DNA of 64,000 bases from the NCBI GenBank assembly GCA_964187785.1, contig OZ076409.1, positions 48,858,001 to 48,922,000 on the forward strand, read 5' to 3'. The position numbers were made by a program, and so were the translations under genes. The notes beneath the pieces are model-generated. The model worked only from the letters and a program-made list of their open reading frames with translations. It was not told the origin of the DNA and did not search any database. Numbering within the stretch: the first letter of the stretch is position 1; each line of letters starts with the position of its first letter. Shown piece by piece: positions 1 to 24,302 of this stretch. This DNA is from Amphiscolops sp. MND2022 (lineage: Eukaryota).

Positions 1-124
1 TAGTAGTAGTAGTAGTAGAAAATCCCACATTGAAGGTATCAACACCGCTGTAACATCCTTGTAGTAGTAGTATTAATAGTAGAAAATCCCACATTGAAGG
101 TATTAACACCGCTGTAACATCCTT
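1..124. repeat. (TAG)n microsatellite end plus a 64-bp tandem duplication
   Basis: Window starts with tagtagtag. The segment agaaaatcccacattgaaggtaYYaacaccgctgtaacatccttg occurs twice, 64 bp apart. Confidence 0.9.
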
Positions 125-246
125 GTTGATGAGAGGAACTCTTGAATGTAAACTTCCTTAAAAAGTTTAGACTGGTCCGATTAACTGTTTAAACTGATTG
201 ATTACACAAAAATAGTGTGAAGAATGTTTGTATCTCAAATTGAGAT

Positions 247-369
247 TCTCAATTCCAAACTCTCACTTTGAAAAAAATTAAATTTATGGTTTCTAGTTTG
301 TATTCAACTTGAATACAAACTAGAAACCATCAATTTAATTTTTTTCAAAGTGAGAGTTTGGAATTGAGA
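247..369. repeat. Long fold-back palindrome, 61-bp arms, centre C308
   Basis: 247-307 is the reverse complement of 309-369 with one mismatch. Confidence 0.95.
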
Positions 370-1064
370 TACAAACATTCTTTTTTTGAAATCTTCTGAT
401 CTTTTTTTGATACCTGTCGTGAGCTTCAGCAAAAACTGTTCCGAAAAATTGTTTTTTCGATTAACTGTACTCTTTTGTACGAAAGAAAGGAAAGTAAAGA
501 CAAGATTAAAAAGCCATTAGTTTAAAAGTAACCCGCTTTTGAGTTTTGTAAACGAACGATTTTCGTAAATCAGGGAAGTTTACAAAAGTGTAGTTCCAAA
601 CTGAACGAACTGTTTCATTCTTTTGTTAACCATTCATCAATCAAATTTTAAGTTGTTACAGCTACTCATGGTTTTCTTTAAGGATGCGAATAAGTCCTAC
701 CTTATAAGGTAACGAAAGTTTCACTCATCATGAGTGATGATCAGCTCTCATTTCCTTATAAGGTACGCGCTGTCCCATTTCTGTGAAAAAGCTACCTTAT
801 TACCTTATTTGGTCAATACGGTGATTCATCGTTGACGAACAAGCGTGCGCGTACTACCTTATTTGGTCAGTAAGCGCCTGCTTTAAAGTATTTCAAGTTT
901 GATCGCGGTAAAATTCCAATTAAATTGGCGGTTATCAGATCTTCTCGAAGAGACCAATTTCCCTTATGAGTAGGCATTGGATTTATTTGGAAATTACAGT
1001 AGTAGCAGAAGCATACAATAAAATATGGATACCATTTGGTTGATGGCTAGACAATACGGAAAAA

Positions 1065-1169
1065 AATACGGAAGAAGCGTTGAATATGTGAAAGTAAAAA
1101 CAGTCTTTACTTCTGAGTCAGAAATAAATACTGTTTTTATTTTCACATATTCAACGCTTCTTCCGTATT
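1065..1169. repeat. Long fold-back palindrome, 52-bp arms, centre G1117
   Basis: aatacggaagaagcgttgaatatgtgaaa ... tttcacatattcaacgcttcttccgtatt, with few mismatches. Confidence 0.95.
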
Positions 1170-2047
1170 CTGAGAAGTACTGAGATTAGTGATTGTTAAT
1201 CGTGTCGCTTCTCAGAAACGTCAATTTAGCTAAGTATTGAATAATTTCTATCAAAATAGATATAAACTTATGTAAGGCGAAATATGGAGAAACATGACAT
1301 TTGGATACAAATAAATCCTAAGCCTACTCATGATTGTTCGCTATGGATGAATCAAATGAAGATGTTTGGAATTTGGCAGTCAGAATTTGTAACAGACAGC
1401 AATATCATTGACTTGTTGGTAAATATGAACGCCAATGCGAATTCTAAAATTGATGATTGACACTTCAATAGTGATTCTTTCTCACCACTGTTACAATACG
1501 CTTCTGACAGCAGAAAGTGGTTCGCAATACTAGCCCCGAGAAGAAAAGTTTAGCTCCGAAATTTATCATTACTAGAAAAGCAAAACGGTTGACCGTTGAA
1601 TCCTCTCCCTTTACAGAAGTTTCAACAGTGTTAGTAGGTAAGATATTGATAGTTTTGTTTCCTTTCCGTAGTATTCAGCTATCTAAAAATTTATTCTCTT
1701 CACTAAAAGCTTTAAATATAGTATATCTTCAAACAAACGCCGGTTTCACCTCCTTTGGAAAAACGAATAATTCTTCTATATTGAATCTGAATCAGTTACT
1801 AAGGAACTGGATATAAGTTGAGTCGGACACTTTTCAATGTCCCTCATATTATCGTCACGGCTGTGATTACGCTCACGGCAGGGACCAAAGTTCAGAAATT
1901 CGATTGAGAGTAAAAACATTTATGGTAAACAAGGTAACTCAGTAAACAAACAAAATCCTGAAATTTGGTCCCTGTCGTGAGCGCAATGTTATTAAACAAT
2001 TCATTAACTTGTCAGCATAACAACAAACACTGTCTGCCAGACAACAG

Positions 2048-2134
2048 TGGCCGACAATAGTTGATAAATTGTTTAATGCGTAAAATTAATCATTAAATTT
2101 ACGCATTAAACAATTTATCAATTATTGTCGGCCA
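2048..2134. repeat. Long fold-back palindrome, 43-bp arms, centre C2091
   Basis: tggccgacaatagttgataaattgtttaatgcgtaaa ... tttacgcattaaacaatttatcaattattgtcggcca. Confidence 0.95.
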
Positions 2135-2411
2135 GACGGTGATGATGAATTGTTTAATGATAAATTGTTTAAACTGAGTTGCAGCTAATTTTGGTCCCTG
2201 GTGTAAGCGCCTGATGTAATAAAACGTTCCTATGACTAAAATGACTCCGATGACTTCTGATCAAGGAAAACGCTAATTTGAAAAATCCATTTTGTAATTT
2301 TTGTATTTATGATACTTTTATAAAAAAAATGCAATAATCATGATCGTAATCATTTGAGGATCACACCATTTGAATATCATATGAAAAGTTACATGACAAA
2401 TGAAGTTGAAA

Positions 2412-3135
2412 TTAGGAGCAATGTTCCTTTACGTGCATCCTATAATTTTCCATTGTCTTGAAATTAACATTGGATACGAGTGTCGCGTGAACATAAATGT
2501 TGCTGTTGAAGTTTAGAGTTGATGTTTTGTCAACTTTGAATTTCAGGGACGTAATGACAGCTGTTCCATCCGCAACTTTGTCCCATTCGTTGCCCAATAT
2601 GTGGTCCCATGCTGATGTTGAAAAAGGGCCGTTGTCTTCTTTGATGGAGAATGTCACTGGGCCATTTGTGACACCGAACGCGTGAATCGTCGCATCAGTG
2701 CAAGGGGCAAAATCTTGCTTGATGTCTTTGACTCTGCTGCGTCCACTGAGGGAATTCATCAGCAAGTTTTTCAGGTTAGAATATGCCCAATACACTAACG
2801 CATGGTCGTCGTATAACGGCGCGCCAGGTGCGTTTTCAACTGCTCCCAGTCTTTTTTTCCGGAGATAACTTACAGGGACTGTTGCGTTACAGGAAGGATC
2901 GTCCTGTTTTTCGACTTCTACGAGAAGTTTCGTCTTTAAATAGTAAATAGAATTAATCTTCCAATCGCAGCCCAAAATATCAACAATGTCTCCCTTGATG
3001 ACGACTCCGGTGCTGATGGGGACACAAACTAGTTCTTTTCGTTCAAGTGGGGTACTTTTGAAACTCTGGGAAGGTCCACCAATTATGGCCTGGGATGGTA
3101 TTGCATCAGGATTACCGAATAATTTATCGTAGTCA
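2412..3135 (-). CDS. Terminal coding exon of an unknown protein (about 240 aa); may be the 3' part of the Tudor-like gene or a separate gene
   Basis: The frame of ORF 2412..2975 stays open upstream to a ttggaatag acceptor at 3136. Composition is protein-like. I could not build a phase-consistent link to the upstream exons. Confidence 0.6.
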
Positions 3136-3432
3136 CTATTCCAAAGTTAAAAAAATATTAGAAAAATGTTTGAAAAGTACTACAACTAACCCATTGAACC
3201 TATTTTGGTTGGTGATATGCGAATGATAATAGGTATTTTTGCCAAAATTGAGAACTCAATTCGCTTCGGAAAAACTGAGGATAAAGCACTTCGGAAACTT
3301 TTCCTAGTAGTATTGTCAAAAACATTTATGTATTCTACAAAAAAAATCAAATCAACTGTACGTGCTTTTTCTCGGGAGGCTGCCAACAACTTGCAACGTT
3401 AAACTTGCAATCATTCAACCCTCATAGTCTAG

Positions 3433-4426
3433 CTAAAAAATAGTTGTACCTCTGTTAAAAAAAATATTGAAGTAGTAATTTCGGTAAGCCTGCTTTACAT
3501 CAATTTTAGTCTTCTTTTTAGGCATCTTGGCGGGGATCGTGGCCTCTATTCCGCGGGTCACCAACACCGTGACTTTTTTGTCACCAAACACCGTCTTTTT
3601 GTCGCATCTTGAAGTAACGTGTTCTTCGTCAGATTCATCCGAGGACTCGGAGTCCTCGGGTTCTTCGAATTTCACTTTTTTGAAAACGGATGCTGCCTTT
3701 TGTGACGATTCGCATCGAAGCTGGTAGTATTTGATGGGGACCAAATTCACATTTTCCAGCTGTTCTTCGAAAAAAACGTTTTCCTCTATTGGTATCACAA
3801 CTGGCGATATCAACATTTCTTTACGGAAGGGATCGTTTTTCATTACGAAACCTTCTTCGATGTCCCCTATGTGTCGGACGCCGTCTTTAGCATGGGCCAG
3901 TGTGTAATGAACTTTATCGTTTCTAACACGTTTTTCTTTCATGTAGCCCAGAACATCAAGGCTCAGTGTCAGTTCAACGCTACGGCTGTAGCTTGGAATT
4001 GGCGTTTCGTTCTTTCGGATGGGCCATTTCTCTGGAAAGTCGTGGAATTTTGGGGGTGTTCTAACGACTCCTGCTGCATGTTTTGAGTTGTAATCTAACC
4101 ATTTGACTTTCGCCTGGAAACAAAAACGTTTTAAAATGTAACTCATTGAACAAAATTCATTAGCAGTAGTGATATTTCTGAAAGCAACAAATGGCAAGTC
4201 TGAAAATCGAATATCTCTAAAACAACAGCGATTTCTGAAAAAAAATTATGAGGATGAAAGTTTCTTAGATTTTTATGTATGTTTATTTGAAGAATATAGG
4301 ATGAAAATTTAATACCTCATGAGTTCGGTGAAATTCGGTGACGTAGGCTAATCGCCAAAGTCCACATTCTTCCTCGAAACATTGCAGGAGTTCTCCGACT
4401 TTGAAATTTTTCGAGAATGTCTGCAT
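3433..4426 (-). CDS. Tudor/chromo-barrel (Royal family)-like protein; exons 4426-4316 and 4113-3433 (263 aa if it ends at 3433)
   Basis: ATG at 4426, phase-0 intron (GAG|gtatt ... tttccag|GCG). Spliced N-terminus MQTFSKNFKVGELLQCFEEECGLWRLAYVTEFHRTHE|AKVKWLDY fits the F-x-V-G-E...W-x-x-A-x-V...V-x-W-x-D-Y barrel pattern. Acidic patch and basic NLS-like KMPKKKTK downstream. Confidence 0.65.
4164..4309 (+). mobile_element. 5' fragment of the MITE family seen at 22131-22816, inside an intron
   Basis: cagtagtgatatt...gaatatctctaaaaca.cagcgattt.tgaaaaa...gaaagtttcttagatttttat closely matches 22131-22283. Confidence 0.75.
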
Positions 4427-5257
4427 TGTCTGTTTCGCACTCGGTTCAAGACTCGGTACTAGTAGTGGGTTTAAGAGGACTAAATTCAGTGTCTTTGTAG
4501 TGAAAAGACTAATATTATGTTGCTCTAAGCAAGCTAAGTTAGCAAAAAGACTTCAACTTGAACTGACTTCAACAAAAATTAGAATAACTTCAACTTAAAC
4601 TTGTCACAGCCACAAAACCAAATTGGGTTAAATTGGTCCAGAATGATATACCGGCCCGCGGGCGTTAATTTGAACCAATATGGTCAAAACTTAGATTTTC
4701 GGATAATCAGTTGAATTGCACAATGGAAAAATTAGTCTATTTAATGATGCTATTCATTACTATCCAATTTATAGTAATGAATGATGCCTCCTATGATGGG
4801 GATGACCATCATTACAAGGCCCACTTCATCCAATATTCAATCTTGGTTGAAACCTAAACCACAAAACCAAATTGGGTTAAATTGTTCCAGAGTATTTTGC
4901 CGGCCCGGGGGCGTTAATTTGAACTTGATTTTCGAATAATGATAATTATGAAGTGATTAGATAATGATGCTCCGTCCTGGCTGACTTCAAGTCACGCTGA
5001 TAAGTCACGCTGATAAGTCACGCTTTAAGTTACGCTGATTGACTATCTTACGCTGCATGACTGAAATCCATTCTACCGGGAAGTGTCTCGTAATTACATC
5101 GTAAAATCGAAAAGAGAATAAGTTTTTGAATTCATCATTTGAAATCAATTCCTCGTCAAGTTCAGACCTCAATTTTATTCAAACTTCTCAACTATATTGT
5201 TGCAACAACCAGTTTACTAATCTCTTGAATTCGAGAATCAAACTGAAATTTTCCAAA
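4427..5257. promoter_or_regulatory. Putative bidirectional promoter between the Tudor-like gene (-) and the SET gene (+)
   Basis: Divergent ATGs at 4426 and 5258. A roughly 66-bp direct repeat (about 4610-4675 and 4859-4924) and four tandem copies of AAGTCACGCTGAT (about 4989-5039). Confidence 0.45.
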
Positions 5258-8917
<3,660 letters not shown>

Positions 8918-9341
8918 AACTTGAAGTGTAATCATTAGTGAAGATGATCTTAGTACAGTAGCGTGATTTTAAAAAAATGCCCGGCCTGCCTCTACACTGA
9001 GCGTTATCATAATTGATCGATTGCATATTTGCTCAATTTCAACTGATTATATATTTTCAACACTTTCAACTGATATCATATTTCAACATATTTTCAACTA
9101 ATAACTCATTTTCAAATAGTTTTTTTTAACCGAAGACAGTATTTTTCTTCCTTACATGACGATGATACGTATGATACTAGTGGAGTCTCTCATAAATTAA
9201 AAAAATGTTTTCAGGACATCCAAAGAAGTTTTTTTTGAATTTTTGAATTACGTTTCGAGTTACTTGGTTTTTTTCTCTGGGGTTAACGCTTTATCGCATA
9301 ACGAGACAACCCGGTAAAATAGGTTTCAGGCACGCAGCTGT

Positions 9342-12300
9342 ATGATCTCGGACATTTCAAAAAGTCTGTCGGAAGTTTGCAATTTGTTTTTTCTTCTTCT
9401 ACCGTGACGGTCACTTCTGGTGGCAATCACAACTTTTGAAATTGTTTTCATAATCATTAAGCCAGTATCATCGTTTTTGTGATTTGTTGCTGGTTTCTTG
9501 CTTAAACAGGTTTTGTATTTCAGATCGAAATGATACAAAAACCAATCATCACTTATGCTGGCATCAATTACGTGAAACTCACATTCCTGAACGTCTTGTT
9601 CCCGAATGTGTTCCTGCTGGAAAGCAATGACTGCCTTCTTCCCAATGATCGCAGAAAGGCTACAGATTTCCTCAAGAAGCATTTAAAAGGTTTATTTTCT
9701 TTCCTTTTTTATTCAAAAACATAACTAGAGATCGTAAACGTAATCGTCCAAAACGTGGTTGTGAGATGTAAGGAATGCACTTGAGCATAGCATTGTAGTT
9801 GATCGTTCGTGGCACGTTTTGATTCATGATTGTTGCAGGACTGAACGTAAACTTCTCTGATGTATACAAGCCCCATGGATTCAAAGAAAGGTGTCCTTTG
9901 TTGCGCGAAGACGTATTCGATTTATTGATAATATCTGCACCTCCATCATTGATTCCCTGGACGACTGAAAGAGTTGGCTATATACGACAATTTTTCCCTT
10001 CGTTGCCCATTCCAGACTCAACCTCTTTTTTAACAATTCAAATTGACGCTATTTTTCACAACAGTCATTGGAAACAGGCGTTTCGCTGCAGAATTTTTGG
10101 AGCTCTTCTTTGAAGACTATATCAGAATCAGAAATTGCATTGGGTCATTTTATTGAAACTCTCAAGCAGTTTTTCACAAGTCAAACTTTGAAAATCAAGA
10201 AAAAAAACACCTTAGTTCATAAACTTCTTCATCTATTTCTGCCAAACTTGTTTTGCCTTGAAAGGGAAGACATTCAAATGGAGATTCAATGCCTACTTAC
10301 TCTCAGTAATCCTCAGGATCTTTTAGTCAAAATACGTCGACTTATACAATGCCCTTTCATCAAATCCACCATTCTCCCTTCAAGACGTGAACTTCAAGCA
10401 ATCACAAATAAATTGAACGAAGATTTCAGATTAATACTTACTCCCAGAAGAACCCCCACTGGGTTCCGTGGTAATCTTGTTACATTTGTCAGATTCGTTG
10501 CCTGCAATTTGTATAACAAGACCAGCTTAGTCGGCTTGAGAGTCGACATTTATGGTGATGCAATGTCTCGGGGGAAAAAACACGTCGTACGAATGGCCTT
10601 CCGAATTTTGCAAAGCGGCATCAAAACTGAGCAATCCTCAACCCATGTCTTCACGTTTGCTGTGTTTGAGGTGAGTCGTTCAAGTTTTAATCTAATTTTA
10701 ACTTTATTAACTTGATTTTAACTTCATTCTAACTTGATTTCTATTGTGAGCTACATCAAAATGTTTATTGAGAACCTAATTTTGGTCCCTGTTGTGAGCT
10801 ACACTTAATAGTTTAGTGGTCACCACCACTAAAAACTCTGAGAACATTCGTGCGTTACGGTAACGCAAATCTAAATTTGGTCCCTGTCGTGAGTTACACT
10901 TAAATGATTACTTAGTAGTTGGAAAACCAATTTGGTCCGTCTTGAGCAGCACTCAAATGTTTTGTTGATATAATTCTAAATTTTTCCCTGTTGTGAGAAA
11001 CTGGAAGTTGAAATATGAATTTTTGGAATGTTTCCCAGGGTAAAGATGTGCGAATCAACCTGGAATACAATCTCGCCATGTCAGAAGTGCTTGGACGCCC
11101 TGGATGGCTATACAACGAAACAAAGGCCTTGCATGATGAAGGTGCTATACTGAGTTGCTCGGGTGATTCACCATTCCAACTGCGTCTTTTAAAAGGTGTT
11201 AGCAGTGATGTCTCTTGTCTGTCAAAGATGTGTCTTTATGTCAGTGATCCTGCAGATATTTCGAATCCACCAGTGAAACAGACAAAAAAAGACACCGCTG
11301 AATATAAGAAAGAAATGGAAGGAAGGGGGTGATTCTTCCGTCAACTGTCGATTATGCTACTGGCCGAAGAACAGAACTGATCATTGACATCAACGAATGC
11401 ATCCCAAAAGACTCTCTCATTTTTCTCAAATCCACTTTCAATACATGCCCTGATTTGCTGCATATGGTTGTCCGTTCAGTCGAAAGTGACTTGAAGTTGC
11501 ATGTGGACTCGATGTTGCTGTTGAAAGACCATGCAGCAATATGTAGACTCGAAAGTAACATAACGGAACGAAATGTGAAACCGCCGAGATTCAAGTTTGA
11601 GATCGTTGAAAAACTCTGCAAGGCTGTATCTCTCAGTTTCAGAGACGCCGAAGTCATAATATCCGACTGCAACAGAATCAGCGACTATGGCCCAGAATCA
11701 GACTGCCCAATTTTTGAAGGTGTGTATTCATTCGAAACACCTCATGTCTACAAAGCTGACCAAACAACCTCTACAACGTCTTATAACGTGTTGATATCAT
11801 TGGTTGATGGGTTGGAGACATCTTTCACAAAAGGAGTGGGTATTTCTGTTCGGAAACTGGCTGACTTCCAATTCCAATCTCTTTACCAGTTACTTGATTT
11901 GCTTCGACAGAGAGAATTCAAAGACATTTCAAAGTGTAAAGATCTCTATGAGATTTATTACCAGTCAACTTTATGTCTTTTCGGTGATCGTGCGTTGACG
12001 CCATACAAATTGAAACTGGATATTTTACTCAGACTTTTTGAGAAGGGTGAGCTTCTGTCTCCATTTTATTACATGACAGAAGGAACTGAAAAAAGCCACC
12101 ACACGGCAGCCAAAGACTACAATACGAAGACAATGCGTGATGGTGGCAATGATGCTTGGAACATGTCATCCAGTTATCTCGATATTCAGTTTTCCTTCTA
12201 CCGTGCAATTGATTTATGTTCTTCAAAGTCTTCGACACTTGAATCTTACCGGAAGTTGTATGGAAAAACCGACGTGACAAAGACGTATCTTGAAATTTGC

Positions 12301-12867
12301 TGTGAACCCATTCCAGAACCTGAACTTGACTATCTTAGAACTGAAGACATGTTTAGAGGTATGCACTTTGTCATTCTTGGAACATATGGTCACCTGAAAG
12401 AAACTCAAGCGAGTCTTGAGAAGAAGATCACTGAAAATGGAGGAAATGTTGTTTCCAATGTAGACATCATCAACAGAAGCAAGCTGAATTTTTTGAGCCA
12501 TCACTATTGCATTTTACCAAATCGAAATTGTATCGACGCATTCATTAAAGGTCAACAAGGTAAAGAAAAAGCTGCAACGAAGGCGCTTTCCAATACGATA
12601 CTCGGTAACTGGATTTACTTGAACGCTGAATTTGTAATCGCCTGTGTACAGAAGAAGTCTTTGATTGATCCCAAAGGCTATGTTTTTGAAGTAGATGAGT
12701 CTGCGAGAGCCAAATTCAAAACGATGAAGTACATATCTATGGCCCCACAATTACAACGTCAATCAAACCCCCTACGACATGGTTCATTAACTTACCACAC
12801 AGCAATGCGGAAGTACAAGAACGCACTAAAAAAGGCCACATTGAAGAGAAAACTAGACGACGTTTAA
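9342..12867 (+). pseudogene. RAG1/Transib-like DDE transposase with C-terminal BRCT domain (about 940-950 aa when repaired); exons 9342-9374 (tentative), 9524-9689, 9839-10670, 11039-12867; two 1-nt frameshifts
   Basis: Motifs in RAG1 order: IYGDAM (D, 10557), FAVFE|GKD, GVSSDVS (D, 11207), PDLLH (H, 11461), TPYKLK, YMTEGTEKSHH (E, 12088). Compare RAG1 SCDGM, GTGYDEK, IDALH, TNYFHK, WASEGNESGNK. BRCT pattern MFRGMHFVILG..LEKKITENGGNVV..FVIACVQKKSLIDPKGY at about 12343-12686. Introns are phase-consistent. Frameshifts fall near T5 at 10052-10056 and G5 at 11325-11329. Confidence 0.75.
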
Positions 12868-13207
12868 TACCTAAAAACTTACTTATTTTATTACTAATTC
12901 AGTAGACAAGGTCCCTTTGACCGCTTCATTGTCAATTCAGTGCTATCTACTAGGTGAACCAAAGAAAATGGAATGTACAAAAATTTTTCGAGTTTACATT
13001 CCCTCTGTTACCTTATTTACTATTGAATGATCTATGACAGTTGTCTCAGGAATGATCTATGAGGACGTATGACTTCCTTGACTTCCTGGAATAGTGTGAC
13101 TTGTTGTGAGTTGTTGGATGTATATATTTGACAATCATTTTATAGTTAATTTCATACAATATTGAATGGTGTATAACTTATGAGCGAATTTTTTCAGTTG
13201 ATATCAA

Positions 13208-16200
13208 ATGGCAACACTGCCGACCACGCCATCAACGTCTCGTCGAACGACACCAGCGAAAGTCCCATGCGGCCAAGGTTCGATAACAATTTTTTTGTGA
13301 TCAAGCTGTAACGTAATCAAGCTGTAACTTTTTTCACGGAAAAGTTTAATCTGACATATGGCATTCCTTTTAGGCACTTGTGACGTTGTGGACAAGCTGT
13401 CCAACATCCTACGCCACCGCAAAGTCTGTCCCCGAATGCCACGAGAGCAGTTCAAGCTCATGGAGAGAACGTGCCAGCTCTGCGGCCAGATCATTTCCGC
13501 CAAAAAACTGCTGAAGAAGCACTACAATACAAAGTATTGTAAGGAGCAGCAAAAGCGGAAAGCAGAAGGCCTGCCTACCCGAATGTACCAGTACGGTTAG
13601 TCAATACAATGTATGTTAAAAATTGATCAACTTGTAACATTTTAAACTCAATGATTTTGAAAAAAGTCTAGGTCTCAAACAAAAAGTGTGTTTTTATTCA
13701 TGTAACTTCTATGTTACAGCAGCTGCAAAAGGCTTGACGCGGAGGCCTAACTTATGCTACGGCAGAGGTTGTGGCAAGTCATATGTTTGCCCTTATGACT
13801 TGCGCGTGCACCTTTTGAAGAATCCTCAATGCCAGGAAGGAGCGAATGTGAGTGCCTGTCCTATTTTTTTCTCTTTAAGAACACATGTTGAATGATTTGA
13901 TTGACCATTTGATTCTCGAAACGCCGTGTTTTAAACGGTGACAATGTGACTGGAAATCCGAATGAGTCATTTTATCGTGGCAACTGTTTAGGCTGCAGTA
14001 TCTTTGGGCTCCGATTCGTCTACTAGTAGCAACACTGACGAGCGATTCAGGCCAGAAGATTTCAACCACATTCCTTCTGATGTGTTTGGGTCTGATGGAT
14101 TTTTCAAGTTCGCGATGGAAGTGCCCCTCGACTACAAGTTTCCTGTAGCTCAATGGGAAGGCAACGTTGACGACCATGTCGTCAAATTCAATTCCCTGAT
14201 GAGACACAGTGTGCCTCTGTTGTGGCGTGGAGGTGTCAACCATTGCCATGGTTTGAAGCTGCCTCAAGTGGAAGAACTCGCTTTCACTGAAGTTGTCCAA
14301 GAGCTTCTAGTCCCCCAGAAGCTACAAGCAAGTGCAGCAACCATCAATGTCAAGTCGGCAAAACTTGGAGAAGTAAGTCTTTGGTAGAATTACTTTCAAT
14401 TTGAAGCTTGTATTTTTCGTAAAATATCTGGAACAACTGCAATTTGATCCCTGGCGTGAGCTCATTTTCCAACTTGGACAAGTCTTTGGTAGAATTACTT
14501 TCAATTTCAAATTTTCAAGTAATGCTTCAAGTTGAAGCTTGTATTTTTCGTAAAATATCTGGAACAACTGCAATTTGATCCCTGTCGTGAGCTCATTCTC
14601 CAACTTGGGCAAGTTGAATTTGTCGAACAACTGCATTTGAACTATTCTAACAATGAGAAAGTTGTCCGTCTTATTCCCGTCTTAGTCACTTTATGATCAT
14701 TTCATTTCAGAGTCGTGACCTCAGTCTCGACGAGTTCAAGCAGGAGCTCATCAACGCCGACAGAAGCAGCGTTTACTATCCTTTAAACGCTATAGACATC
14801 GCCATGCAGCCAAAGGTAAACAACATTGAATGAGCTCCTTTGATTTGATGGAAAACGCAAATCCACTGAAAAACGACTTTTCTTTTTCTGTTTTTCCCCA
14901 ACCCCCTGTTTGCTAGTAGTTGCGTACAAATTCGACTTTGAGGATTTTATTCAACATAATGCACATTGTTTTGAAACAACTTCAACTTATATTGATTTTT
15001 TTGTCTTTTCAGTCCATCTACAGCGTGCCAACGATGATAAAAAAGTCGTCAGTGAACCACCTTGTGGACGAGCTGGTGAGTAAGTCAGCAGAACCGTTCT
15101 CAGTAGCGACTTCATACTACTTGCTGATCTCCAACGATGGTCGTCAAACAACTTGGCACACGGACTTCAGTTCAACATCTGTCTTTTATACAGTCTTGAC
15201 TGGGTCCAAGACCTTCTTTCTGGTTGCGCCAACTGAAAACAACATGAAGTTGTTCAATGCCTGGTCCAAACAAGAATGGGACGACATGTAAGTTGAATTT
15301 TTTCACCAAGGAATTTCAGCTTTTGTGTTCATCTATTTTTGTATTTTTTGCATCATTTTGCATCACGGGCCATCATTTCCGTACGTGTTTTCATTGTATT
15401 TGCGAAATTTTCAACTTTCAATGCACTATATTGTTTTTGCATCGCCGAATATTTTAAGAATAGTCGCTTAGAGTTCCAACAGTTTTCGTTTTAGGCCAAC
15501 ATTTTTTGGATGCCACAAAAGACTGGAGGGGGGTTGCCTCAGGGTTACTCTTAATCCGGGCGACGTTTTCGCCATGCCGTCTCAGTACATCCATACAGTC
15601 CTCACAAGTGGAGACTCTGTGGCAATAGGGACGAATTTCCTTTCAGAAGGTCATTCGAACCAATTCATAAAGGCGATCATTGAAGAAGACTCCACCAGGG
15701 AGCATGAGAAGTTTCCGGGCATGTTGGAAATGCTAGCTATTTTGATGCTCAAAGCATCAGAGAGATGCATGATAACTCCGGACTTCCTTCGTCTTCACAG
15801 AGCCATTGAGAATCGATATCAAGAAAGTGAAGCTGTTGCTGTGAGTTGTATTTTTTAGTTCACAATCGTTTAGAATCAAACTATGTTATCGAATTAAGTA
15901 TTTGTATAATGAAGCCGTGTTGTGACTCACAACAGGGACCAAAACTGAAATTGGTAATCATCATGAATAATGTTGATGATGACGTTGTGGCTCACGACAG
16001 GGACCAAAATTAAAGGTGGTAATGATTACCAATTTTAATTTCGGTCCCTGTCGTGAGCCACAAGGTCATCATCAGCATTATTTGTTGATGATCAACAAAG
16101 TTGATCAAATAGCTTGGTGAGTTATCACGAGTTTTGTTTCAGATTTGCCCCGAATTCAGCAAGGAGAGACTCGTTTACAATATTTGCTCGCGCAAAGACT

Positions 16201-16774
16201 TCGTAAACGATGTTTGTGTCAGCGCTTTCACGGAAACGGCCTCAAAAAGGGCATATCTTCTTTGCCCCAAGCCTTGCTTCAGAAGGAGGAACTGGTTTAC
16301 AAACGAGGACGGCGTGAGGGTCCCGAAGGAAGCAATTTCTGAGGAGCACCTCACTTTCTTTTGCCGAAAACCTGATGTTGACGAGCCGAATCGTGATATT
16401 TTAATCAGCTATGAGGAAGCCATCACGTATGTTCACCCGCGACCGTCACAAACTGTCAGAGGTTTGCACAAAATGCCGAAAAGAAAAACCCTCGTTCAAG
16501 ACCGTGGTAAGTTTGCTTATTTCAGTTACATCCTGGTTGTTTCGTCTTAATATACATAGTGGTAATGTAAGTGATAATATTCAACTCAAAACTGGTCACC
16601 TGGTTGAACATCCGTAAGGCTTACATTTGATTTTCGTATTTCCTAAAAAGACTTCAAAATGAAATTAATGGAGTGGTAATCGAATTCAATGTTTTTGTTT
16701 CAGAATTCAGACCATCTACTGATCGTTACGTTGCTTCGATCATGAGCCACCATGTCCCTGCATACAGCTTGTAG
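13208..16774 (+). CDS. Three zinc fingers plus JmjC histone demethylase (KDM2/KDM7-like); 9 exons: 13208-13277, 13374-13595, 13720-13847, 13992-14372, 14711-14815, 15013-15287, 15495-15840, 16143-16506, 16704-16774 (653 aa)
   Basis: All 8 introns are GT-AG and phase-consistent; total 1962 nt. JmjC motifs YLLISNDGRQTTWHTDFSSTSVFY..GSKTFFLVAPT and GDVFAMPSQYIHTVLT..VAIGTNFL keep HxD...H and the 2-OG-binding T and K. N-terminal C2HC-type fingers CGQGTC..RHRKVC, CQLC..KHYNTKYC and CYGRGC..VHLLKNPQC. Confidence 0.9.
14374..14636 (+). repeat. Imperfect tandem duplication in a JmjC-gene intron; each unit carries the 19-bp motif
   Basis: ttgaagcttgtatttttcgtaaaatatctggaacaactgcaatttgatccctg.cgtgagctcatt occurs twice, 131 bp apart. 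Confidence 0.9.
15967..16081. repeat. Fold-back palindrome, 57-bp arms, centre G16024, in a JmjC-gene intron
   Basis: ataatgttgatgatgacgttgtggctcacgacagggacc ... ggtccctgtcgtgagccacaaggtcatcatcagcattat. Confidence 0.93.
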
Positions 16775-16942
16775 TTGCGTACAGACTGAGTTGTGCTTAA
16801 GAAGTTCTCGATCATTGTTAACTGAACATGTTGAACTTTCTTGTCTCCGAGTTATTTGTTGTGCTCAGTAAGTTGTACACTGTGGCTCGGTATAAACTTG
16901 TAGCTTGAAAAACTGCTCTGGATTTTTCGAATGACCGTCAAC

Positions 16943-17302
16943 CAGGGGTGTTAAATATTGCATTGCAATACTATTGCAATACTAATAAAACAATCTTTTG
17001 TTATTCTGAATTTTGTTGAAACAATAATTGCAATTATTGTGTCTATGAAAAAGATTGTTTGAAGAACCAATCAAATCAATTTGTTGATCAAATTAACATC
17101 CGAAAATTGTTCGTTGATCATTATTAGTTTGACTGAAAAGTCCGCCAAATTGGAAGTATTTGGTACCCAACTCATGTCTCCGAATTCTTTCCTTATTGTG
17201 AAAAATCAACAATGTATTGTATTTGATAACGTTCTGAAAATAATTATTGTATACAATTTTATTGCAATTATTGTGACCTAGAATAATTTTTTAACAACCC
17301 TG
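16943..17302. mobile_element. hAT-type MITE (360 bp)
   Basis: TIRs CAGGGGTGTTAAA / TTTAACAACCCTG; 8-bp TSD CCGTCAAC at 16935-16942 and 17303-17310. Confidence 0.92.
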
Positions 17303-18633
17303 CCGTCAACAACCTGGTATTTTTTGTTCATAGCAAATTCAGCAAAACATTCAGCAAATTATTACGGCAAAGTCCAATTACCTCATAGTCTAGTTAAAAT
17401 CTTTATTTTAACTAATAATTTCACGGTAAAAAAATTGTTGTTGACCATTATTCAATTATTAGGTTACTATTCATTCAATAAGTTAATGTGTACAATTTAC
17501 CTTCGATTTATAGTGCATTCAAAGTTTGTACAGCCTTGATCGTTTGTAAGTTTGTAATGTTCTGAATTGTATCAACTGTGTTTTGGACAATTACTGTCGG
17601 AAATGTCGAGTAGTTGTTCCCAAAAAAAGAGGGACATCTACCGTCGGAAATATCGGGTGGTTGTTTCCAAAAAAAATATCAAATACCGTCAAAATCAATC
17701 ATTGATGGCCGCCGGAAATCATCGGGTCATCGGAAGGGAGTTTCCAATTAACTTCGCCTTTGTGCTCCCTTGCATCGTATGTTTTCTCTTTCAGTACAGG
17801 CCGAGTATGAATAATAGAAGCAAAAGCCTCTTTGTTAAGGAGAAAAACAGTGTTTAAGGTTGTTTAAGAATAGAAAAACGGTCAAACGTCCCAATTCAGA
17901 TTCAGTTGTCTGTAACTTTTTCAATTTTCGTCTGAAAAATTTCAAAGTTAAACTAGTGTAAACTAGAAAAAAATTTAAGAATAGTTTCCTTCTGACAATT
18001 TTACAAATTTTCAATCGATTCCGAAAAAATCGAGCCTGAAAATGCTCGGGGGGTGTTTTCCTAATCACAGTACTAGAGCTCTCAACCAATGAAATGAACA
18101 TGTGGGCATCAATTAGCCAATGATATCTATTCGTTCGTTCCGCCGGCGGCTGCTGTTTTTCAAAAGTTGATAAAAGTACTTCAAGTTGACTCAAGTTTGT
18201 TATGTTTGCTATAGACCAAGACTCAAGTTGTTTTAATTATTCTTGACGCAGCTCGGAGAAGCAACATAAATACAGGTTACCTTTTGATCCGTCGTGAGCA
18301 AATATAAAACAGAGTTGCTAAACCGTATTTTAAGTTAAGTACCAGCTCTGAGAAACTGTCTCTGTTTTCAACCACAGTATCCTTCTTTTCTTAGGATGTG
18401 TTTTCGGAAAGAAAACAACTTTCATTGAATATTGTATTTTGAATACAAAAATAGCACCAGTTTTATAATGGAATTTATGAACATTATAAAATCACAAAAA
18501 AATAATTGAAAATAAAAAATTTATCTCTTTTAGAGCAAATAAATAATGAGTTTTGAAACTTTAAAGTTTCAAAAATAGTGGAAAAGTCGTTGAAATCGTT
18601 TCAACGAAACTTTGAGTCCCTCGGGTTCAGACA

Positions 18634-19215
18634 TTATTTCAGCCTGAGCAGGCATCCTTGTTTCCTGCAGAGTGGGCACTTCACCCAAAGGGCACGATCA
18701 GTGCTTTCCCTGTGAATCACAGTGATCAAAATTTTCGAACGATATCTAGAATGAGTTTGTTTTGTAACCACGTGTGTACCAAAAATTTCAGGAATACAAA
18801 AATGTAAAGGACACGCCTCAAAAAATTGATCAGTGAAAATTATCAGAAAGGAAAAGCGAAAACAGCTTCAATAACAATTTTTCAAAGCAAAGTTCTGTGA
18901 AACTTACCTCTCAAGCACTTTGATCCAGGCTTGACGGCACTGATTGCATATCGCGTGTTTATCATGGAGAATCCAAAAACGCGAAAAGATCTTCTCTCCA
19001 CAGACAGCGCAAAGCATTTCCAGTTGGTTAATGTGTTTCAGGTGGTCAATAAGTACAATGATTTTTGAAAAGATATATCAGTCTTGTCACACGGTTGTTT
19101 GAAGATCGAATGGCCAACAATCGGCCCGGGACATATAGAACACATCGTACGAAAGATTTGAACTTTATTTTGTCATTATCTTGTTTCTATGTACGAACAA
19201 CTGGCTTTGTTTCAT
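18634..19215 (-). pseudogene. Spliced RING-finger gene not on the ORF track; exons 19215-18908 and 18709-18634; three in-frame stops upstream of the RING
   Basis: AG|gtaagt ... ttcacag|G gives MLCAVCGEKIFSRFWILHDKHAICNQCRQAWIKVLERESTDRALWVKCPLCRKQGCLLRLK*. The same frame from ATG 19215 contains TAA, TGA, TGA. A 61-aa product from ATG 19017 remains possible. Confidence 0.75.
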
Positions 19216-19516
19216 GACTTGACAACTTGCAAGTCCTTTTAATCCTTTCACTTAGTAACCACCTAGTTAATTTATAACCTCTGTACCTGTAACAAATAAC
19301 CGTCTCCACTTATTATTTGGTTTAGTAAACCAACGCGGTACTTCGGTAGTGCCACTTTCATTCATTTCAAAATAAGATGATAGTCAAGATGATTCTTTCA
19401 TCTCAGTTATTATGTCGATATAATTGTATTTGTTTCAATGGTTTCAAAAAATGAAATAATTAATACTTTACAGAATTGAATGACGTACATATGTATGTTT
19501 ACAAAGTTTATGGAAT

Positions 19517-19714
19517 TAACAAAGTTCTTTCATTTATCACTACTAAAAAATTAATAACGTACATATGTGGTTTTGATCCCTGTCGTGAGCAACATCAAGT
19601 TGTAACAAATAGTCTAACAAAGTTCATTCATTTATCACTACGAAAAAATTAATAACGTACATATGTGGTTTTGATCCCTGTCGTGAGCAACATCAAGTTG
19701 TAACAAATAGTCTA
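19517..19714 (+). repeat. 98-bp tandem duplication carrying an extended motif module that recurs near 23221, 23324(-) and 24441
   Basis: aaaaattaataacgtacatatgtggttttgatccctgtcgtgagcaacatcaag is near-identical at five positions. Confidence 0.92.
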
Positions 19715-19794
19715 TACGAATCTAAAACTCTGTTTGAGTCTAAAACTCTCTATCAATCTGAAATGTCTATTACCAAATCTCCAAGTACTTAAAC

Positions 19795-20116
19795 GATTAT
19801 TTAATTACCACTGCAGTAAATTTAGAATTGAGGCGTGTTGAATAAGGACAACTGCCAGTGAAGGTGCCACAGGCTGTTCAGTGAAGGTTTGTCGAAAACT
19901 GCTGAGAAGTGCTTACACCGTGTAAGCATTAATTAACACCATTAACACCGTGACGATTAATTAATTACCACTGCAGGAAAGGGTAGATTTGAGGCATTTT
20001 AATTATGACTATTCAAATTTTGTCGATAACCGCAGCAAAGTCCTTACACGATTAACTAATTACAATTACGAATTGAGGCTTTCTAATAATGATTTCTGAA
20101 TTTCTGTCGAAAACTG
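19795..20116 (+). repeat. Three diverged direct repeats upstream of ORF 20317
   Basis: taattac...ttgaggc...tgtcga.aac.g units near 19795, 19955 and 20050. Confidence 0.7.
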
Positions 20117-20316
20117 AAAAGTCGATTCAGTCAAACCTTTTACAACGATACTGTCAACTTGCTTTCATATCTCTCGCAATCATCAACTTCTGTTTTCATC
20201 AAATCCTAATTTCATAATCAACTTCTGAACTTGTCAAAAACAGCAAAGTCAAATCAGTCAATTCTTTCGCATCAATATTATCAACCTTCTTTCTCTCGCA
20301 ATCATCAATATCTATC

Positions 20317-20754
20317 ATGTTCGATCCCGCAGCAATGCCAATCAGGTCGTGTATTCGTCCAATAGATGAAATGATCTCAAACTGTGGACTACCACACAGA
20401 AAAAACGTGCGTTTTGCTGACTCAGCACCAATCTCGGACTCAACCACCAATCAACTTGAAACAACTCCCACATATCCGAGAGCTTGGAGAATCAAAAGAA
20501 GGGCACCCATTCCTGAAACTCCAACTCCACTGGCACCCACTCTAATGCACCCACTCCACCAAAAAGCAGTCACTACGGTAGGATCAAAAACAGTGAGGTT
20601 CTCTTTCATAGAAAGGGCTGTATCACCGAATGGAGAAGTATCAGAGTCAGTCATTTCCTTCAATGACTCGGAAACCAATCCTTGTGACGAATACTGGAAA
20701 ACTGGGGCTCTCGACGACAGGCCGTACATAATGAACTGCCGAACAACACGATAG
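20317..20754 (+). CDS. Small (145 aa), probably disordered protein with two RVxF PP1-docking motifs
   Basis: Intronless ATG-to-TAG ORF, Pro/Thr/Ser-rich, with RKNVRF and KTVRF and an upstream RSCIR (SILK-like) segment. Confidence 0.55.
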   Translation: MFDPAAMPIRSCIRPIDEMISNCGLPHRKNVRFADSAPISDSTTNQLETTPTYPRAWRIKRRAPIPETPTPLAPTLMHPLHQKAVTTVGSKTVRFSFIERAVSPNGEVSESVISFNDSETNPCDEYWKTGALDDRPYIMNCRTTR

Positions 20755-20763
20755 AATATAAAG

Positions 20764-20822
20764 TTATTATTCTGCTCTTCTAGTACAGTTGACACAACTG
20801 TACTAGAAGAGCAGAATAGTAA
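20764..20822. repeat. Fold-back palindrome, about 28-bp arms, centre C20793
   Basis: tattctgctcttctagtacagttg-aca-caactgtactagaagagcagaata. Confidence 0.92.
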
Positions 20823-20835
20823 TTTTAAATGTAAC

Positions 20836-21201
20836 CAGGGCTACCGAAAAAATAATGGATCAAACCATTATCTTTGATAAATAATTTATTTCTAGTATAT
20901 TTCCATTCAGATAATTTATTTCTGTCATTCGAAAAATACCATAATTATTTCGGAATTTTCCATTATTTTAGAAATAAAATGATCTACAAAGCAAATAAAG
21001 GCGACGCTACCACCAAGGCAGCTTGCCGTATGTAGGCTATTGTAAATTTCTAACATATGCGAAATTATTTCATATAATTTAAAATTATGGCCATAATTTA
21101 TTTATTTGAGAGAATATTGTTATTTATGGGCATTAAATCTAAAATAAATCTATAAATATAAAAATAATGAAAAAAACTAAAAGAATTTTTCGGTAGCCCT
21201 G
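20836..21201. mobile_element. hAT-type MITE (366 bp)
   Basis: 16-bp perfect TIR CAGGGCTACCGAAAAA; 8-bp TSD AATGTAAC at 20828-20835 and 21202-21209. Confidence 0.95.
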
Positions 21202-21237
21202 AATGTAACATCGGTTCTAAAATCATTTCTGAATGTC

Positions 21238-21720
21238 GACGAAACAGTTTGGCTTCAGTACAGGGGTGTTCATTATTGTATTGTAATTTAAATCTAAGCC
21301 TACGAAAATCAATAATTCAATTTTCCACAAAAATCAATAATTGAAATTATTGTGCTCAAAAACACACTGATGAAGAAACTTAAATTGCTCTGCGAACTTT
21401 GAAAGTTTCTTTCTATAATAAGTCATCATAAATCTCGCTCGAGAGGATTTTTTTCAAGTAACCAACTTTTTCGATTTGTTAATGTTACACTGCAATTAAT
21501 AATTTCCCCCACAGGATTACGAGCAATCAATAATTGTTGGAAAACAGAGACGTAAAATCAATAATTGTAATTGTTTAACTTAAATTGAATTGCAATAATT
21601 GTTCTTTGCAATAATTAGTTGAACACCCCTGCTTCAGTATCTCAGTATCGGATGCGAATTTTACCTCCGGGGTAAAATTCGCATCCGATACTGAGATACT
21701 GAAGCCAAAACTGTTTCGTC
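21238..21720. repeat. Fold-back palindrome (centre C21668) whose left arm is split by the hAT MITE
   Basis: 21632-21665 pairs with 21671-21704. The right arm continues gaagccaaaactgtttcgtc, matching gacgaaacagtttggcttc at 21238-21256 on the far side of the MITE. Confidence 0.88.
21261..21631. mobile_element. hAT-type MITE (371 bp), related to 16943-17302
   Basis: TIR CAGGGGTGTTCA; 8-bp TSD CTTCAGTA at 21253-21260 and 21632-21639; internal CAATAATTG-rich repeats. Confidence 0.95.
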
Positions 21721-21879
21721 CAATCAGATTTTAGAACCAACCAACGAGTCGTCATCTGGAAGGACAAATTTTTCTGATGATCAACTTGCAAAGCGAACAA
21801 AAGATCGGTCGTCTCGACACGAACTTCTAGACCTATTACACAGTCTGAAATCCAACCTGTCAAACTTGAAAGCGAATGG

Positions 21880-23130
21880 TCAATGTGTGAACAACTTCTT
21901 GACTCAAGGACGACCTTCGGTGGACGAAATTGAAGATCTTTCCTACCCACTTGAAGAATGGATGGAGGAAATTTAACCCTTGGTTTCCCACTTCAATGCC
22001 CAAAACTTCGCAACCCTCAGTGAGGAGAATTTGAAGCAAGAACAAAACAAATGCCTGGAACTTCAAGAAGGGGTTCAAGCTCAGATAATCTCAATTGGCA
22101 AGTTACAGAAGAATATGTTGAGGCCTTGTACAGTAGTGATATTATTAAAAGCAACAAAAGGCAAATCTCAAAACCGAATATCTCTAAAACAGCAGCGATT
22201 TTTGAAAAATGATAAAGTGAAAGTTTCTTAGATTTTTATCTAGTTTACAAATATGTTTGTTTGAAGACTATGCGATGAAAATTGTAGAAGTTACGATAGG
22301 CCATTTTTAGCCAAATTTAGGTCAAAATTGAGGTTTTTCTCACTTTTGGGCTACTTTTCCCCAAAATTGTTGAAAAAATTTTTGTTCAATTGACCCCCCT
22401 GATTTAACTGAAGCTCCTGATATGTTTTGATTTAGAAATCATCTTAAAATCGTAAAGAAAATGCGCTGTAAAATTGAACTTTTTCGAAAATACATGTATT
22501 AAGATACGATTTTGAAATATAACCACTTAAAACAAGCTCGTACTAATACAATTTACAATATTTTCGAGAAAAAATTATATTGTCAGATTCAAAATGTTTG
22601 GGAGAATTTTTCTGTTAAAATTGTTTTGAAATCAAAAAATTGTAAGTGGGTCAAAAATTCAAAAAACTAAAAAATGATGTTTTGGAAATCGCTCTCGACC
22701 AATGAAATGAGCGCGTGAGACGTTATTTAGCCAATGAGATTTGTTTATTTGCTCTCTTTCCGCGTGCTTTGTTGCTTAATAATATAGTTGTTGTAGTAAT
22801 AATAATATCACTACAGTACAAAACCATTCAAAACTCACAGATTCAGAACAGCACACAAGATAACGAATCAGTGGCTAGTTTGAGCGACCGCGTGATCGGA
22901 ATCATGAACAGATACAACGCCATTTCTTCCAACGTGGAGGAAAGAGCGCAACAACTGTATTTCGACATAGAGGAGTCCTTACAGGTATTGAGATTGTGAT
23001 TGTTATGTATCCGAAGAAACTGAAAGAACAGCTGAAGAATCTATCGCAAGTTAGAACAAATCTGGAGGACACCGGTGCCGAAATTGACAAGATCAAGGCC
23101 AACGCTGAGCAAATGTTGAAGAGTAATCCT
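21880..23130 (+). pseudogene. Disrupted coiled-coil-like gene interrupted by a TA-flanked MITE and frameshifts
   Basis: Removing the MITE joins EEYVEALY|KTIQNSQIQNSTQDNESVASLSDRVIGIMNRYNAISSNVEERAQQLYFDIEESLQ. Helical E/Q/L-rich fragments lie on both sides in shifted frames. Confidence 0.5.
22131..22816. mobile_element. Tc1/mariner-type MITE (686 bp)
   Basis: TIR CAGTAGTGATATTATTA / TAATAATATCACTACAG (one mismatch), flanked by TA on both sides. Confidence 0.8.
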
Positions 23131-23190
23131 CACAATCGAATTTATTATTTCGAACAATATATTGTCAATTCATGATATTATTCATTTATT

Positions 23191-23407
23191 AAATAAAAAT
23201 ATAATTGATATTATTCAATAAAAAATTAATAACGTACATATGTGGTTTTGATCCCTGTCGTGAGCAACATCAAGAAACGTTGTAACTGGAGTAACTATCA
23301 TAGTTACTCCAGTTACAACGTTTCTTGATGTTGCTCACGACAGGGATCAAAACCACATATGTACGTTATTAATTTTTTATTGAATAATATCAATTATATT
23401 TTTATTT
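23191..23407. repeat. Perfect fold-back palindrome, 108-bp arms, centre C23299
   Basis: 23191-23298 is the reverse complement of 23300-23407; each arm holds the 19-bp motif. Confidence 0.96.
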
Positions 23408-23682
23408 CTGATGATAAAAAAATTATGATGAAAAAAATTATATTTTTAATTTATGATAAATTGAACAAGTAATTTTTGTCGAGCACAAATTCTAGCTGAG
23501 ATTACAAATCTCAACGAAAAAAACTTTTGCCCATTTTGATGTAGTTTTAAAGAGGCTCTCAGTTTGGGGATCACATAGTGTCGCCCGTAACAAGACCCAC
23601 GACGCGAACGTGGCCTCTGAAGGGTCTCAAAATCTAATTTACAAATTCTACAAAATTATACTAACTACACTTTTACAAAAAT

Positions 23683-23898
23683 TTAATTATACAAAATGCT
23701 ATTTACAGGTAATCTACAGTAAGGACATCTAACGAGGTCTGCACTCGCTAAACTATCTAAATAGTGTTTTATACACTCTCTACAAGCTAAATGTAATTTA
23801 TGTTCTAGGTGAAAACTTTGTAATTCTACTATTCTAAAGTTTTCGTAGCAGATCATGCATTCTTTATTCTTCGAAGCAGCAGCTTTCTTCACCCTCAT
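23683..23898 (-). pseudogene. RING-finger coding segment; upstream part appears frameshifted or decayed
   Basis: CMIC-x12-HLEHKLHLACREC...VRCPYCR. Upstream sequence to about 24139 has in-frame stops and a probable frameshift near 23865. Confidence 0.75.
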
Positions 23899-24169
23899 CG
23901 ATTGGGCTATTCAGAATGTTGGCTGTTGATTTAGAATGGCGAAAGGATAGAAGGAAGAATAAGAATAAGAATGAAATTTTAAAGACTTGTAGAGATTTTA
24001 GAGATTTGTATAGAGCGAGGGAAGAAATGAGTGAAAAAATGAAAGACTTCACGAAAAAGTTTCAATTTCGTAAATCCTTTCACGAACCATGCCGGGACTG
24101 AACGAAATTTTCACCGATACCGAACACCTGTGACGTCATAATTAACTGTATTGCATTTCTGATGCGCGC

Positions 24170-24302
24170 TAACCTTTCAGCTATATCGCCTTGAAAGAAA
24201 TCAATTACCATTCGCAAATGTTGAAGAGTCACTCTTCAACATTTGCGAATGGCCCATTCCCGGGGAATTGATTCCTTTCAAGGCGATATAGCTGAAAGGT
24301 TA
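24170..24302. repeat. Fold-back palindrome with an internal bulge, centre C24230
   Basis: taacctttcagctatatcgccttgaaag...ccattcgcaaatgttgaagagt-c-actcttcaacatttgcgaatgg...ctttcaaggcgatatagctgaaaggtta. Confidence 0.93.

Follow-up and report, generated by a model that had tools for sequence, protein, structure and literature searches.

Can a transposase keep the fold and active site of RAG1 while its zinc ligands are gone, and what does such an enzyme move? The question is raised by a gene in a 64,000-nucleotide stretch of Amphiscolops sp. MND2022 (contig OZ076409.1, positions 48,858,001 to 48,922,000), hereafter the window, from whose first base all positions are counted. The gene probably encodes the cut-and-paste transposase of a recently amplified 27-kb DNA transposon, an enzyme with a predicted RAG1/Transib fold, no zinc ligands and a single BRCT domain at its C-terminus. 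The genome searched comprises 1.07 Gb and has GT-AG introns.

Active site, zinc ligands and predicted fold

The transposase is predicted to be encoded by three exons, separated by GT-AG introns at 9690-9838 and 10671-11038. The features of the gene on which the argument turns are the following.

9530..9689 (+): transposase exon 1, with the predicted start ATG at 9530; similar N-termini occur in sister family B and in relatives
9839..10670 (+): transposase exon 2, holding the first catalytic Asp (10557); 1-bp loss near 10052 in the window copy
11039..12867 (+): transposase exon 3, holding the accessory Asp (11045), the second catalytic Asp (11165), the DxxH His (11461), the catalytic Glu (12088) and the BRCT domain; 1-bp loss near 11325
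11228..11239 (+): likely counterpart of the RAG1 CxxC, reading M-C-L-Y here and hydrophobic or aromatic family-wide, in a register inferred from the distance to the second Asp
11998..12027 (+): TPYKLKLDIL, at the position of both ZnH2 His, each replaced by Leu, in what we take to be the register against RAG1

An earlier note on this DNA had begun the gene at 9342; the ATG at 9530 is better supported by the predicted model, and an exon further upstream is possible. The model is open in copy C7a, where it yields a protein of 939 amino acids. Both 1-bp losses of the window copy lie in homopolymer runs and could be mutations or assembly errors. The loss near 11325 recurs in two of 18 other readable copies, that near 10052 in none of 17. 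Among six other copies that were modelled, one is intact and three carry a premature stop. A fifth has lost 7 bp from exon 1, and the sixth, whose exon 2 was mis-parsed, a single base from exon 3.

Relatives of the protein numbered 22 in one search and 202 at E ≤ 0.001 in another, with the same motifs kept. All are unnamed environmental or assembly proteins, and ten that were looked up gave no informative name. A search of a large protein set with profile A2 returned only the profile's own first sequence. The alignment discussed here contains 44 of the 202 relatives, selected for length, and the number of rows per column varies with coverage. Invariant or nearly so are the three catalytic columns, the accessory Asp, the DxxH and a YKxK motif. 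The first catalytic residue, the Asp of DIYGD at 10557, is Asp in 21 of 21 aligned rows, and the Glu at 12088 is Glu in 40 of 40, both as previously proposed. The same holds for PDLLH at 11449 (Asp in 39/39, His in 40/40). The second catalytic Asp had to be moved: the column at 11207, to which it had been assigned, contains Asp in 24, Glu in 13 and Ala in one of 38 rows, and the residue is instead the Asp of SGDSP at 11165 (Asp in 33/33).

The absence of zinc ligands, described earlier for this one copy, extends to the family. None of 33 rows has a CxxC within the 45 amino acids after the second Asp, and none of 40 has a His at either ZnH2 column, where the His-free TPYKLKLDIL stands at 11998. 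A single His further along, within 14 amino acids, occurs in the ZnH2 region of three of 40 rows. Anywhere between the second Asp and the Glu, a CxxC is found in three of 29 rows, at unshared places, and no Cys pair is conserved. Across the family, the zinc-ligand columns are occupied by hydrophobic and aromatic residues, as far as the inferred RAG1 register goes. Since the ligands are missing throughout the family, pseudogene decay is ruled out as the cause of their loss.

It is improbable that a structural metal site has been kept and merely shifted to other conserved His or Cys residues. Three other columns do contain an invariant or nearly invariant His (40/40, 37/41 and 40/40), and Cys is common before the DxxH (28/39). 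Yet the element itself has Tyr at the 37/41 column, the other two His flank active-site positions (the H795-like position and E+4), and the conserved Cys pair is lacking as described above.

The fold was approached through two predicted models. In the model of the relative P0030 (34% identity, pLDDT 82.7), the first Asp lies on strand 1, the second after strand 4, and the Glu on a helix past a long insertion. Foldseek matched this model to RAG1 (E 1.1e-6) and HzTransib (E 1.4e-4). Structural comparison gave Z 13.1 against RAG1 (416 aligned residues, root-mean-square deviation (rmsd) 4.1), Z 12.3 against ProtoRAG and Z 11.2 against HzTransib (380 aligned, rmsd 7.4), compared with Z 7.9 for the P element and Z 7.2 for Hermes. 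The element's own exon-3 model (pLDDT 84.1) places its residues 1-348 on ProtoRAG 763-1061 (Z 11.5, rmsd 3.2, 239 residues). From the end points of this alignment, Glu350 falls at about E1063, which the available part of PMC7204232 gives as a catalytic residue of ProtoRAG. A helical insertion domain of the RAG1 type is present in the predicted models, and the first Atlas match was RAG1 (0.93), taken as a lead only. By these models, the transposase fold is nearer to RAG1/Transib than to the P element or Hermes.

Several observations pull the other way. Profiles A1 and A2 match no RAG1 or Transib chain in the PDB at E ≤ 10, so that the link to these enzymes rests on predicted structure, and no transposase family is among the Pfam families listed for the 44 relatives, the listing covering 25 of 29. 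In Foldseek, the exon-3 model has no match at E ≤ 0.001, and the chains listed for it are BRCT domains, not RAG1. The superpositions are loose (rmsd 3-7 Å, identity 8-13%), and the full-length model represents a relative (34% identity) instead of the element's own protein. To these we add that the window copy is frameshifted, with only one of the six other modelled copies intact, and that one of 24 pairs of element ends, introduced below, has a target duplication of 3 bp, not 2.

The mobile element and its copies

What the transposase would move is a long element with terminal inverted repeats (TIRs), whose left end lies just outside the window.

1..25123 (+): TIR transposon of 26,927 bp, with its left end outside the window, 1,804 bases ahead of base 1 (G000:C1:48856197), as delimited by shared ends in other copies and an end-motif search
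25102..25123 (-): right TIR, 13 bases identical and 20/22 matching the left end
25124..25125 (+): 2-bp target duplication AT; joining both flanks restores the 183-bp satellite unit
7210..7301 (+): internal repeat of the left end (its first ~92 bases), located in an intron of the SET gene; also present in other long copies

The TIRs begin CATTACGATACA, and the element ends read CATTACG. The window copy landed in an array of the 183-bp satellite (25123-52784). Six other copies, fetched with their flanks, confirm that the unit measures about 27 kb. Both ends are shared by five of them, whereas the sixth, whose left part is missing, shares only the right end. Searched against the genome, exon 3 gave at least 83 scored matches, the best of 979 candidates, all at 98-100% identity, and 70 of these 83 keep a 617-amino-acid frame without a stop inside the match. 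The mean pairwise difference is 0.26% among the 18 best-scoring exon-3 copies. A 22-base end pattern has 627 exact matches in the genome, internal left-end copies included, and none for the reversed control.

The target duplication measures 2 bp in 23 of the 24 end pairs (22 of family A, to which the window copy belongs, and one each of sister families B and C). These were picked from adjacent opposite ends among the listed matches and from the fetched copies, and two ambiguous pairings, around L061 and L064-L066, were excluded. Twelve different dinucleotides are duplicated, TA in two of 23 cases, and no dinucleotide is preferred. The ends of a pair are 0.37-3.4 kb, 12.2 kb, 27-30 kb, 36 kb or 41 kb apart, and deletion derivatives thus move too.

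A 12.2-kb derivative with the element's ends has been amplified by itself, with four or more copies on G000:C1 and C2. Copies Cc1 and Cc2 of family C contain several internal end copies; these, like the one in the SET intron of family A, are possible transposase binding sites or alternative ends. A 196-bp segment lies in direct orientation near both element ends, at 24466-24661 and, outside the window, some 890-1085 bases to the left of its first base. Near-perfect long hairpins with loops of 1-5 bases stand between the element's genes (247-369, 1065-1169, 2048-2134, 15966-16082, 20756-20830, 21631-21705 and 23170-23428); possibly these are terminators or replication scars.

Mobile ends and many copies rule out a domesticated host gene. 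A viral origin was also considered and dropped: 82 pattern matches were found in viral contigs and none was confirmed. That the RAG1-like gene is a passenger, and that another protein such as the product of the exon upstream of SET moves the element, is very unlikely. The element does carry several genes, and this exon recalls a tyrosine recombinase by eye. Against this, inverted ends and short target duplications are a DDE signature, conservation within the element is strongest in the transposase core (nonsynonymous divergence, dN, 0.17), and the upstream exon has no recombinase match in Pfam or the PDB. With only a likeness by eye, the exon was rejected as a tyrosine recombinase.

A single BRCT domain and the cargo genes

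The C-terminal part of exon 3 was earlier read as a BRCT domain, and this assignment is borne out by the fold in both models, with MDC1 as the best match (Z 10.8, rmsd 2.6, 93 aligned residues).

12352..12678 (+): single BRCT domain, from Pfam BRCT_2 (E 7.3e-5, below the curated cut-off) and fold matches

Of the 40 relatives whose sequence reaches the catalytic Glu, 36 have the domain; the other four end early. In the 44 relatives, Pfam reports BRCT_2 in 20 and PF00533 in eight, with a best E of 1.2e-7. Between families A, B and C, the BRCT is under purifying selection (dN 0.23-0.29).

Phosphopeptide-binding BRCTs come as a tandem pair with a Ser or Thr before the Gly of the first loop, and some single BRCTs bind DNA or dimerise. 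Here, both models contain one domain, and the column before the conserved Gly is L/I/V/C/M, with Ser and Thr absent from its five commonest residues, so that DNA binding and self-association are live alternatives. This column, together with fold matches that are nearly tied among many BRCT types, counts against the interpretation of the domain as a dock. A tentative, if plausible, assignment is that the domain is a docking site for host proteins of break repair, which it would bring to the place of excision; DNA binding taken singly is less probable, and self-association likewise. For the two together, a BRCT that contacts DNA at ends or nicks, or associates with another transposase subunit, and recruits no repair proteins, we see an even chance. 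Besides the single domain and the hydrophobic residue, this is favored by the lack of recognizable N-terminal zinc fingers in the 939-amino-acid model, which would make an extra DNA-binding module useful. What speaks against it is that the BRCTs of XRCC1 and ligase IV occupy the top Foldseek rows for the exon-3 model, though at E 0.005-0.03 and tied with others.

In P0014, P0037, P0050, P0054 and P0073, tails after the BRCT recall an HMG box by eye; no HMG family is listed in whole-protein Pfam scans. RAG uses HMGB1.

The transposase is accompanied by several other genes and by a dispersed motif.

2412..4426 (-): partner gene, spliced; present in sister families B and C; its N-terminus is chromo-barrel- or Tudor-like by eye only
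6216..8917 (+): SET-domain gene, with SET at about 8108-8440 (Pfam SET E 3.4e-10); conserved in B and C
10775..10897 (+): two of the 23 copies of a 17-bp motif, in transposase intron 2
13355..16550 (+): zinc-finger and JmjC gene, spliced, with weak Pfam matches per exon; conserved in B and C
23686..23910 (-): RING-finger open reading frame (ORF), Pfam zf-C3HC4_3 E 2.2e-4; not found in the fetched sister-family copies

Sister families B and C occur in the same genome, have about 70% transposase identity and share the first 12 end bases. The partner, SET and JmjC genes are common to all three families, with the JmjC gene of family B inverted and relocated to the left. Synonymous sites between the families are at or near saturation and dN is 0.28-0.44 in the genes other than the transposase; the shared gene set is under purifying selection.

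The partner gene received no assignment from Pfam, the PDB or the Atlas. A weak match to it lies in locus L075, head to head with a distant transposase relative (29% over ~80 amino acids, at E 0.001 against a small database; the N-terminal piece matches at 24%). L075 is one of 16 metagenome loci with relatives, most of the others being too short to show a partner. A 79-bp piece of the partner-gene region (4164-4242) is duplicated near the right end (22131-22209) at 89% identity. An upstream exon of the SET gene is without an assignment, and a CTA repeat in the gene encodes poly-Thr. This repeat comprises 105 units in the SET ORF of the window (8556-8870); other copies have far fewer, C2b for instance encoding 9 Thr. 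In the JmjC gene, the metal-binding HxD (15157-15165) and the distal His (near 15592) are present.

The 17-bp motif has 23 copies in family A at up to 3 mismatches. It is absent from 50 shuffles, from the rest of the window and from the tested stretches of families B and C. None of the 23 lies inside the hand-drawn coding stretches, which cover 39%; because the copies are clustered, the P value computed for this is too low. In family B, a related motif that is not identical occurs in 12 copies. By analogy with VANDAL/VANC anti-silencing in Arabidopsis, the zinc-finger-JmjC protein may bind these family-specific motifs and counter silencing of its own family, a proposal as likely to be right as wrong. 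According to the available part of PMC5735166, that system likewise has a transposon-borne chromatin factor, and short motifs in its non-coding DNA vary from one related family to the next. It differs from the element in belonging to another transposase superfamily; here, the candidates are the zinc-finger-JmjC and SET genes, and the binding of the motifs is inferred. The available text of PMC12730594 cites a further element with a SET gene, HarbingerS. Two findings weigh on the other side: the SET domain reads NY in place of the usual NH, and family C has no dispersed motif except the internal end copies.

Other features stand apart from these subjects. The right-arm ORFs at 20218-20754, 21695-22228 and 22706-23172 have no Pfam match, and the sister-family stretches gave no counterpart of them. 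Copy B3 of family B is adjoined by a distinct unit with SET and JmjC (L106:8918-10000 onward), which hints at more chromatin-cargo elements in the genome. Outside the element, minus-strand exon-like ORFs at 56877-60287 recall a TRP-type ion channel by eye, as would suit an animal host.

Place among known transposons

The closest structural matches, RAG1 and RAGL/ProtoRAG (PDB 4WWX, 6CIJ, 6B40), share with the transposase the predicted domain order and fold over ~420 residues, and the D, D, E, the E662-like acidic residue and the H795-like His in matching order. In contrast to them, the element has neither the ZnC2/ZnH2 ligands nor the N-terminal zinc fingers, a BRCT replaces the C-terminal tail, and its ends start CAT. 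Its target duplication is 2 bp, not 5 bp; RAG1L elements have the 5-bp duplication, the zinc ligands and the active-site residues in the available part of PMC7204232. The element also differs in its 27-kb length and its chromatin cargo. No RAG2-like gene was recognized: 28 ORFs scanned gave no kelch-domain match, the partner gene being without an assigned fold.

With Transib (HzTransib, PDB 6PQN/6PQX), the element has in common the predicted fold, a single large DDE gene and TIRs beginning CA. It differs by the absence of the zinc motifs and of a sequence-level match, by the BRCT fusion and several extra genes, and by a non-specific 2-bp duplication and CATTACG ends in place of the 5-bp duplication and CAC(AATG)-like end. 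No zinc-free or BRCT form of Transib is described in PMC9435367. Duplication length is a weak criterion for exclusion because it varies within Transib: the available part of a preprint on Nozomi (bioRxiv 10.64898/2026.08.26.747230) describes Transib elements whose duplications are 3 bp long or TA, and holds that this length should not override enzyme homology.

The wider comparison is with the CMCT clade (EnSpm/CACTA, Mirage, Chapaev, Plavaka, ESTA, Lanisha). CACTA elements carry a second conserved gene, as does the element described here. We know of no solved structure of an EnSpm, Chapaev or Plavaka transposase, and none is among the structure matches listed, which is not an exclusion. 'RAG1-related' therefore cannot be narrowed below this wider clade. 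Of the divergent RAG1-related lineage proposed in the earlier note, the RAG1-like fold, the missing zinc ligands and the C-terminal BRCT have held; the closer relationship has not been pinned down.

All CMCT lineages share C(2)C and H(3-4)H motifs, CA..TG ends and a 2-5-bp duplication, as stated in the available part of PMC12730594, whose text contains no occurrence of BRCT. The element agrees with this clade in its termini, its duplication and its DDE triad in an RNase H-like core (invariant columns, predicted models). It lacks the C(2)C after the second Asp and the H(3-4)H before the Glu; one of the five conserved C/H residues, a His, is kept and the other four are missing. ESTA has a TA-specific duplication there, unlike the element. 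No Pfam family of EnSpm, Mirage, Chapaev, Plavaka or Lanisha is listed for the 44 relatives, though not every lineage has a model, and Lanisha is named without detail in the available part of PMC8245031. With ends and duplication in agreement and both motifs missing, we regard the element as CMCT-like in its working and do not file it in a named lineage.

We consider it unlikely that the element belongs within Transib or EnSpm/CMC, as a far-diverged branch that Repbase may already contain. The best folds, the CA..TG ends with a short duplication and the variable duplications of Transib all suit such a branch. Against it stand the family-wide absence of C(2)C and H(3-4)H, the missing profile match to RAG1/Transib chains, and the literature. 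In the literature searched, which did not extend to Repbase Reports and subscription journals, neither a transposase-BRCT fusion nor an element like this is described. Apparently, then, this is an undescribed lineage of RAG1-fold cut-and-paste transposons, set apart from Transib, RAGL and CMCT by published motifs, and possibly of superfamily-level status. A fuller version is doubtful as a whole: a superfamily-level branch of the RAG1 fold that dropped the zinc site, gained a BRCT repair dock, kept its partner across distant lineages and carries a sequence-specific anti-silencing kit (zinc-finger-JmjC and SET) as an independent counterpart of plant VANC.

For an undescribed RAG1-fold lineage, we propose the following mechanism. 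A DDE transpososome would pair two ends of 13-22 bp and excise the element. RAG and Transib excise by a nick-and-hairpin route, and excision probably takes the same route here, as suggested by the invariant H795-like His. Insertion would occur with a 2-base stagger, which the 2-bp target duplications point to. Hydrophobic and aromatic residues would replace the zinc site and leave the insertion domain zinc-free, and broken and shortened copies would move in trans. The BRCT would dock repair factors, DNA or another subunit, and the cargo may counter silencing, by analogy with VANC as presented in the available part of PMC5735166.

The zinc motifs are the published hallmark of the whole clade from which RAG1 arose. 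Their absence from a young, high-copy family suggests that the RAG1 fold can work free of a zinc site, and this family offers an outgroup for studies of RAG evolution. A transposase that bears a BRCT would make it testable how cut-and-paste elements steer the repair of their own breaks, and a recently amplified, intact 27-kb element is a candidate vector for large cargo. Finally, the zinc-finger-JmjC gene and the family-specific motifs allow a direct test of transposon-encoded anti-silencing outside plants.

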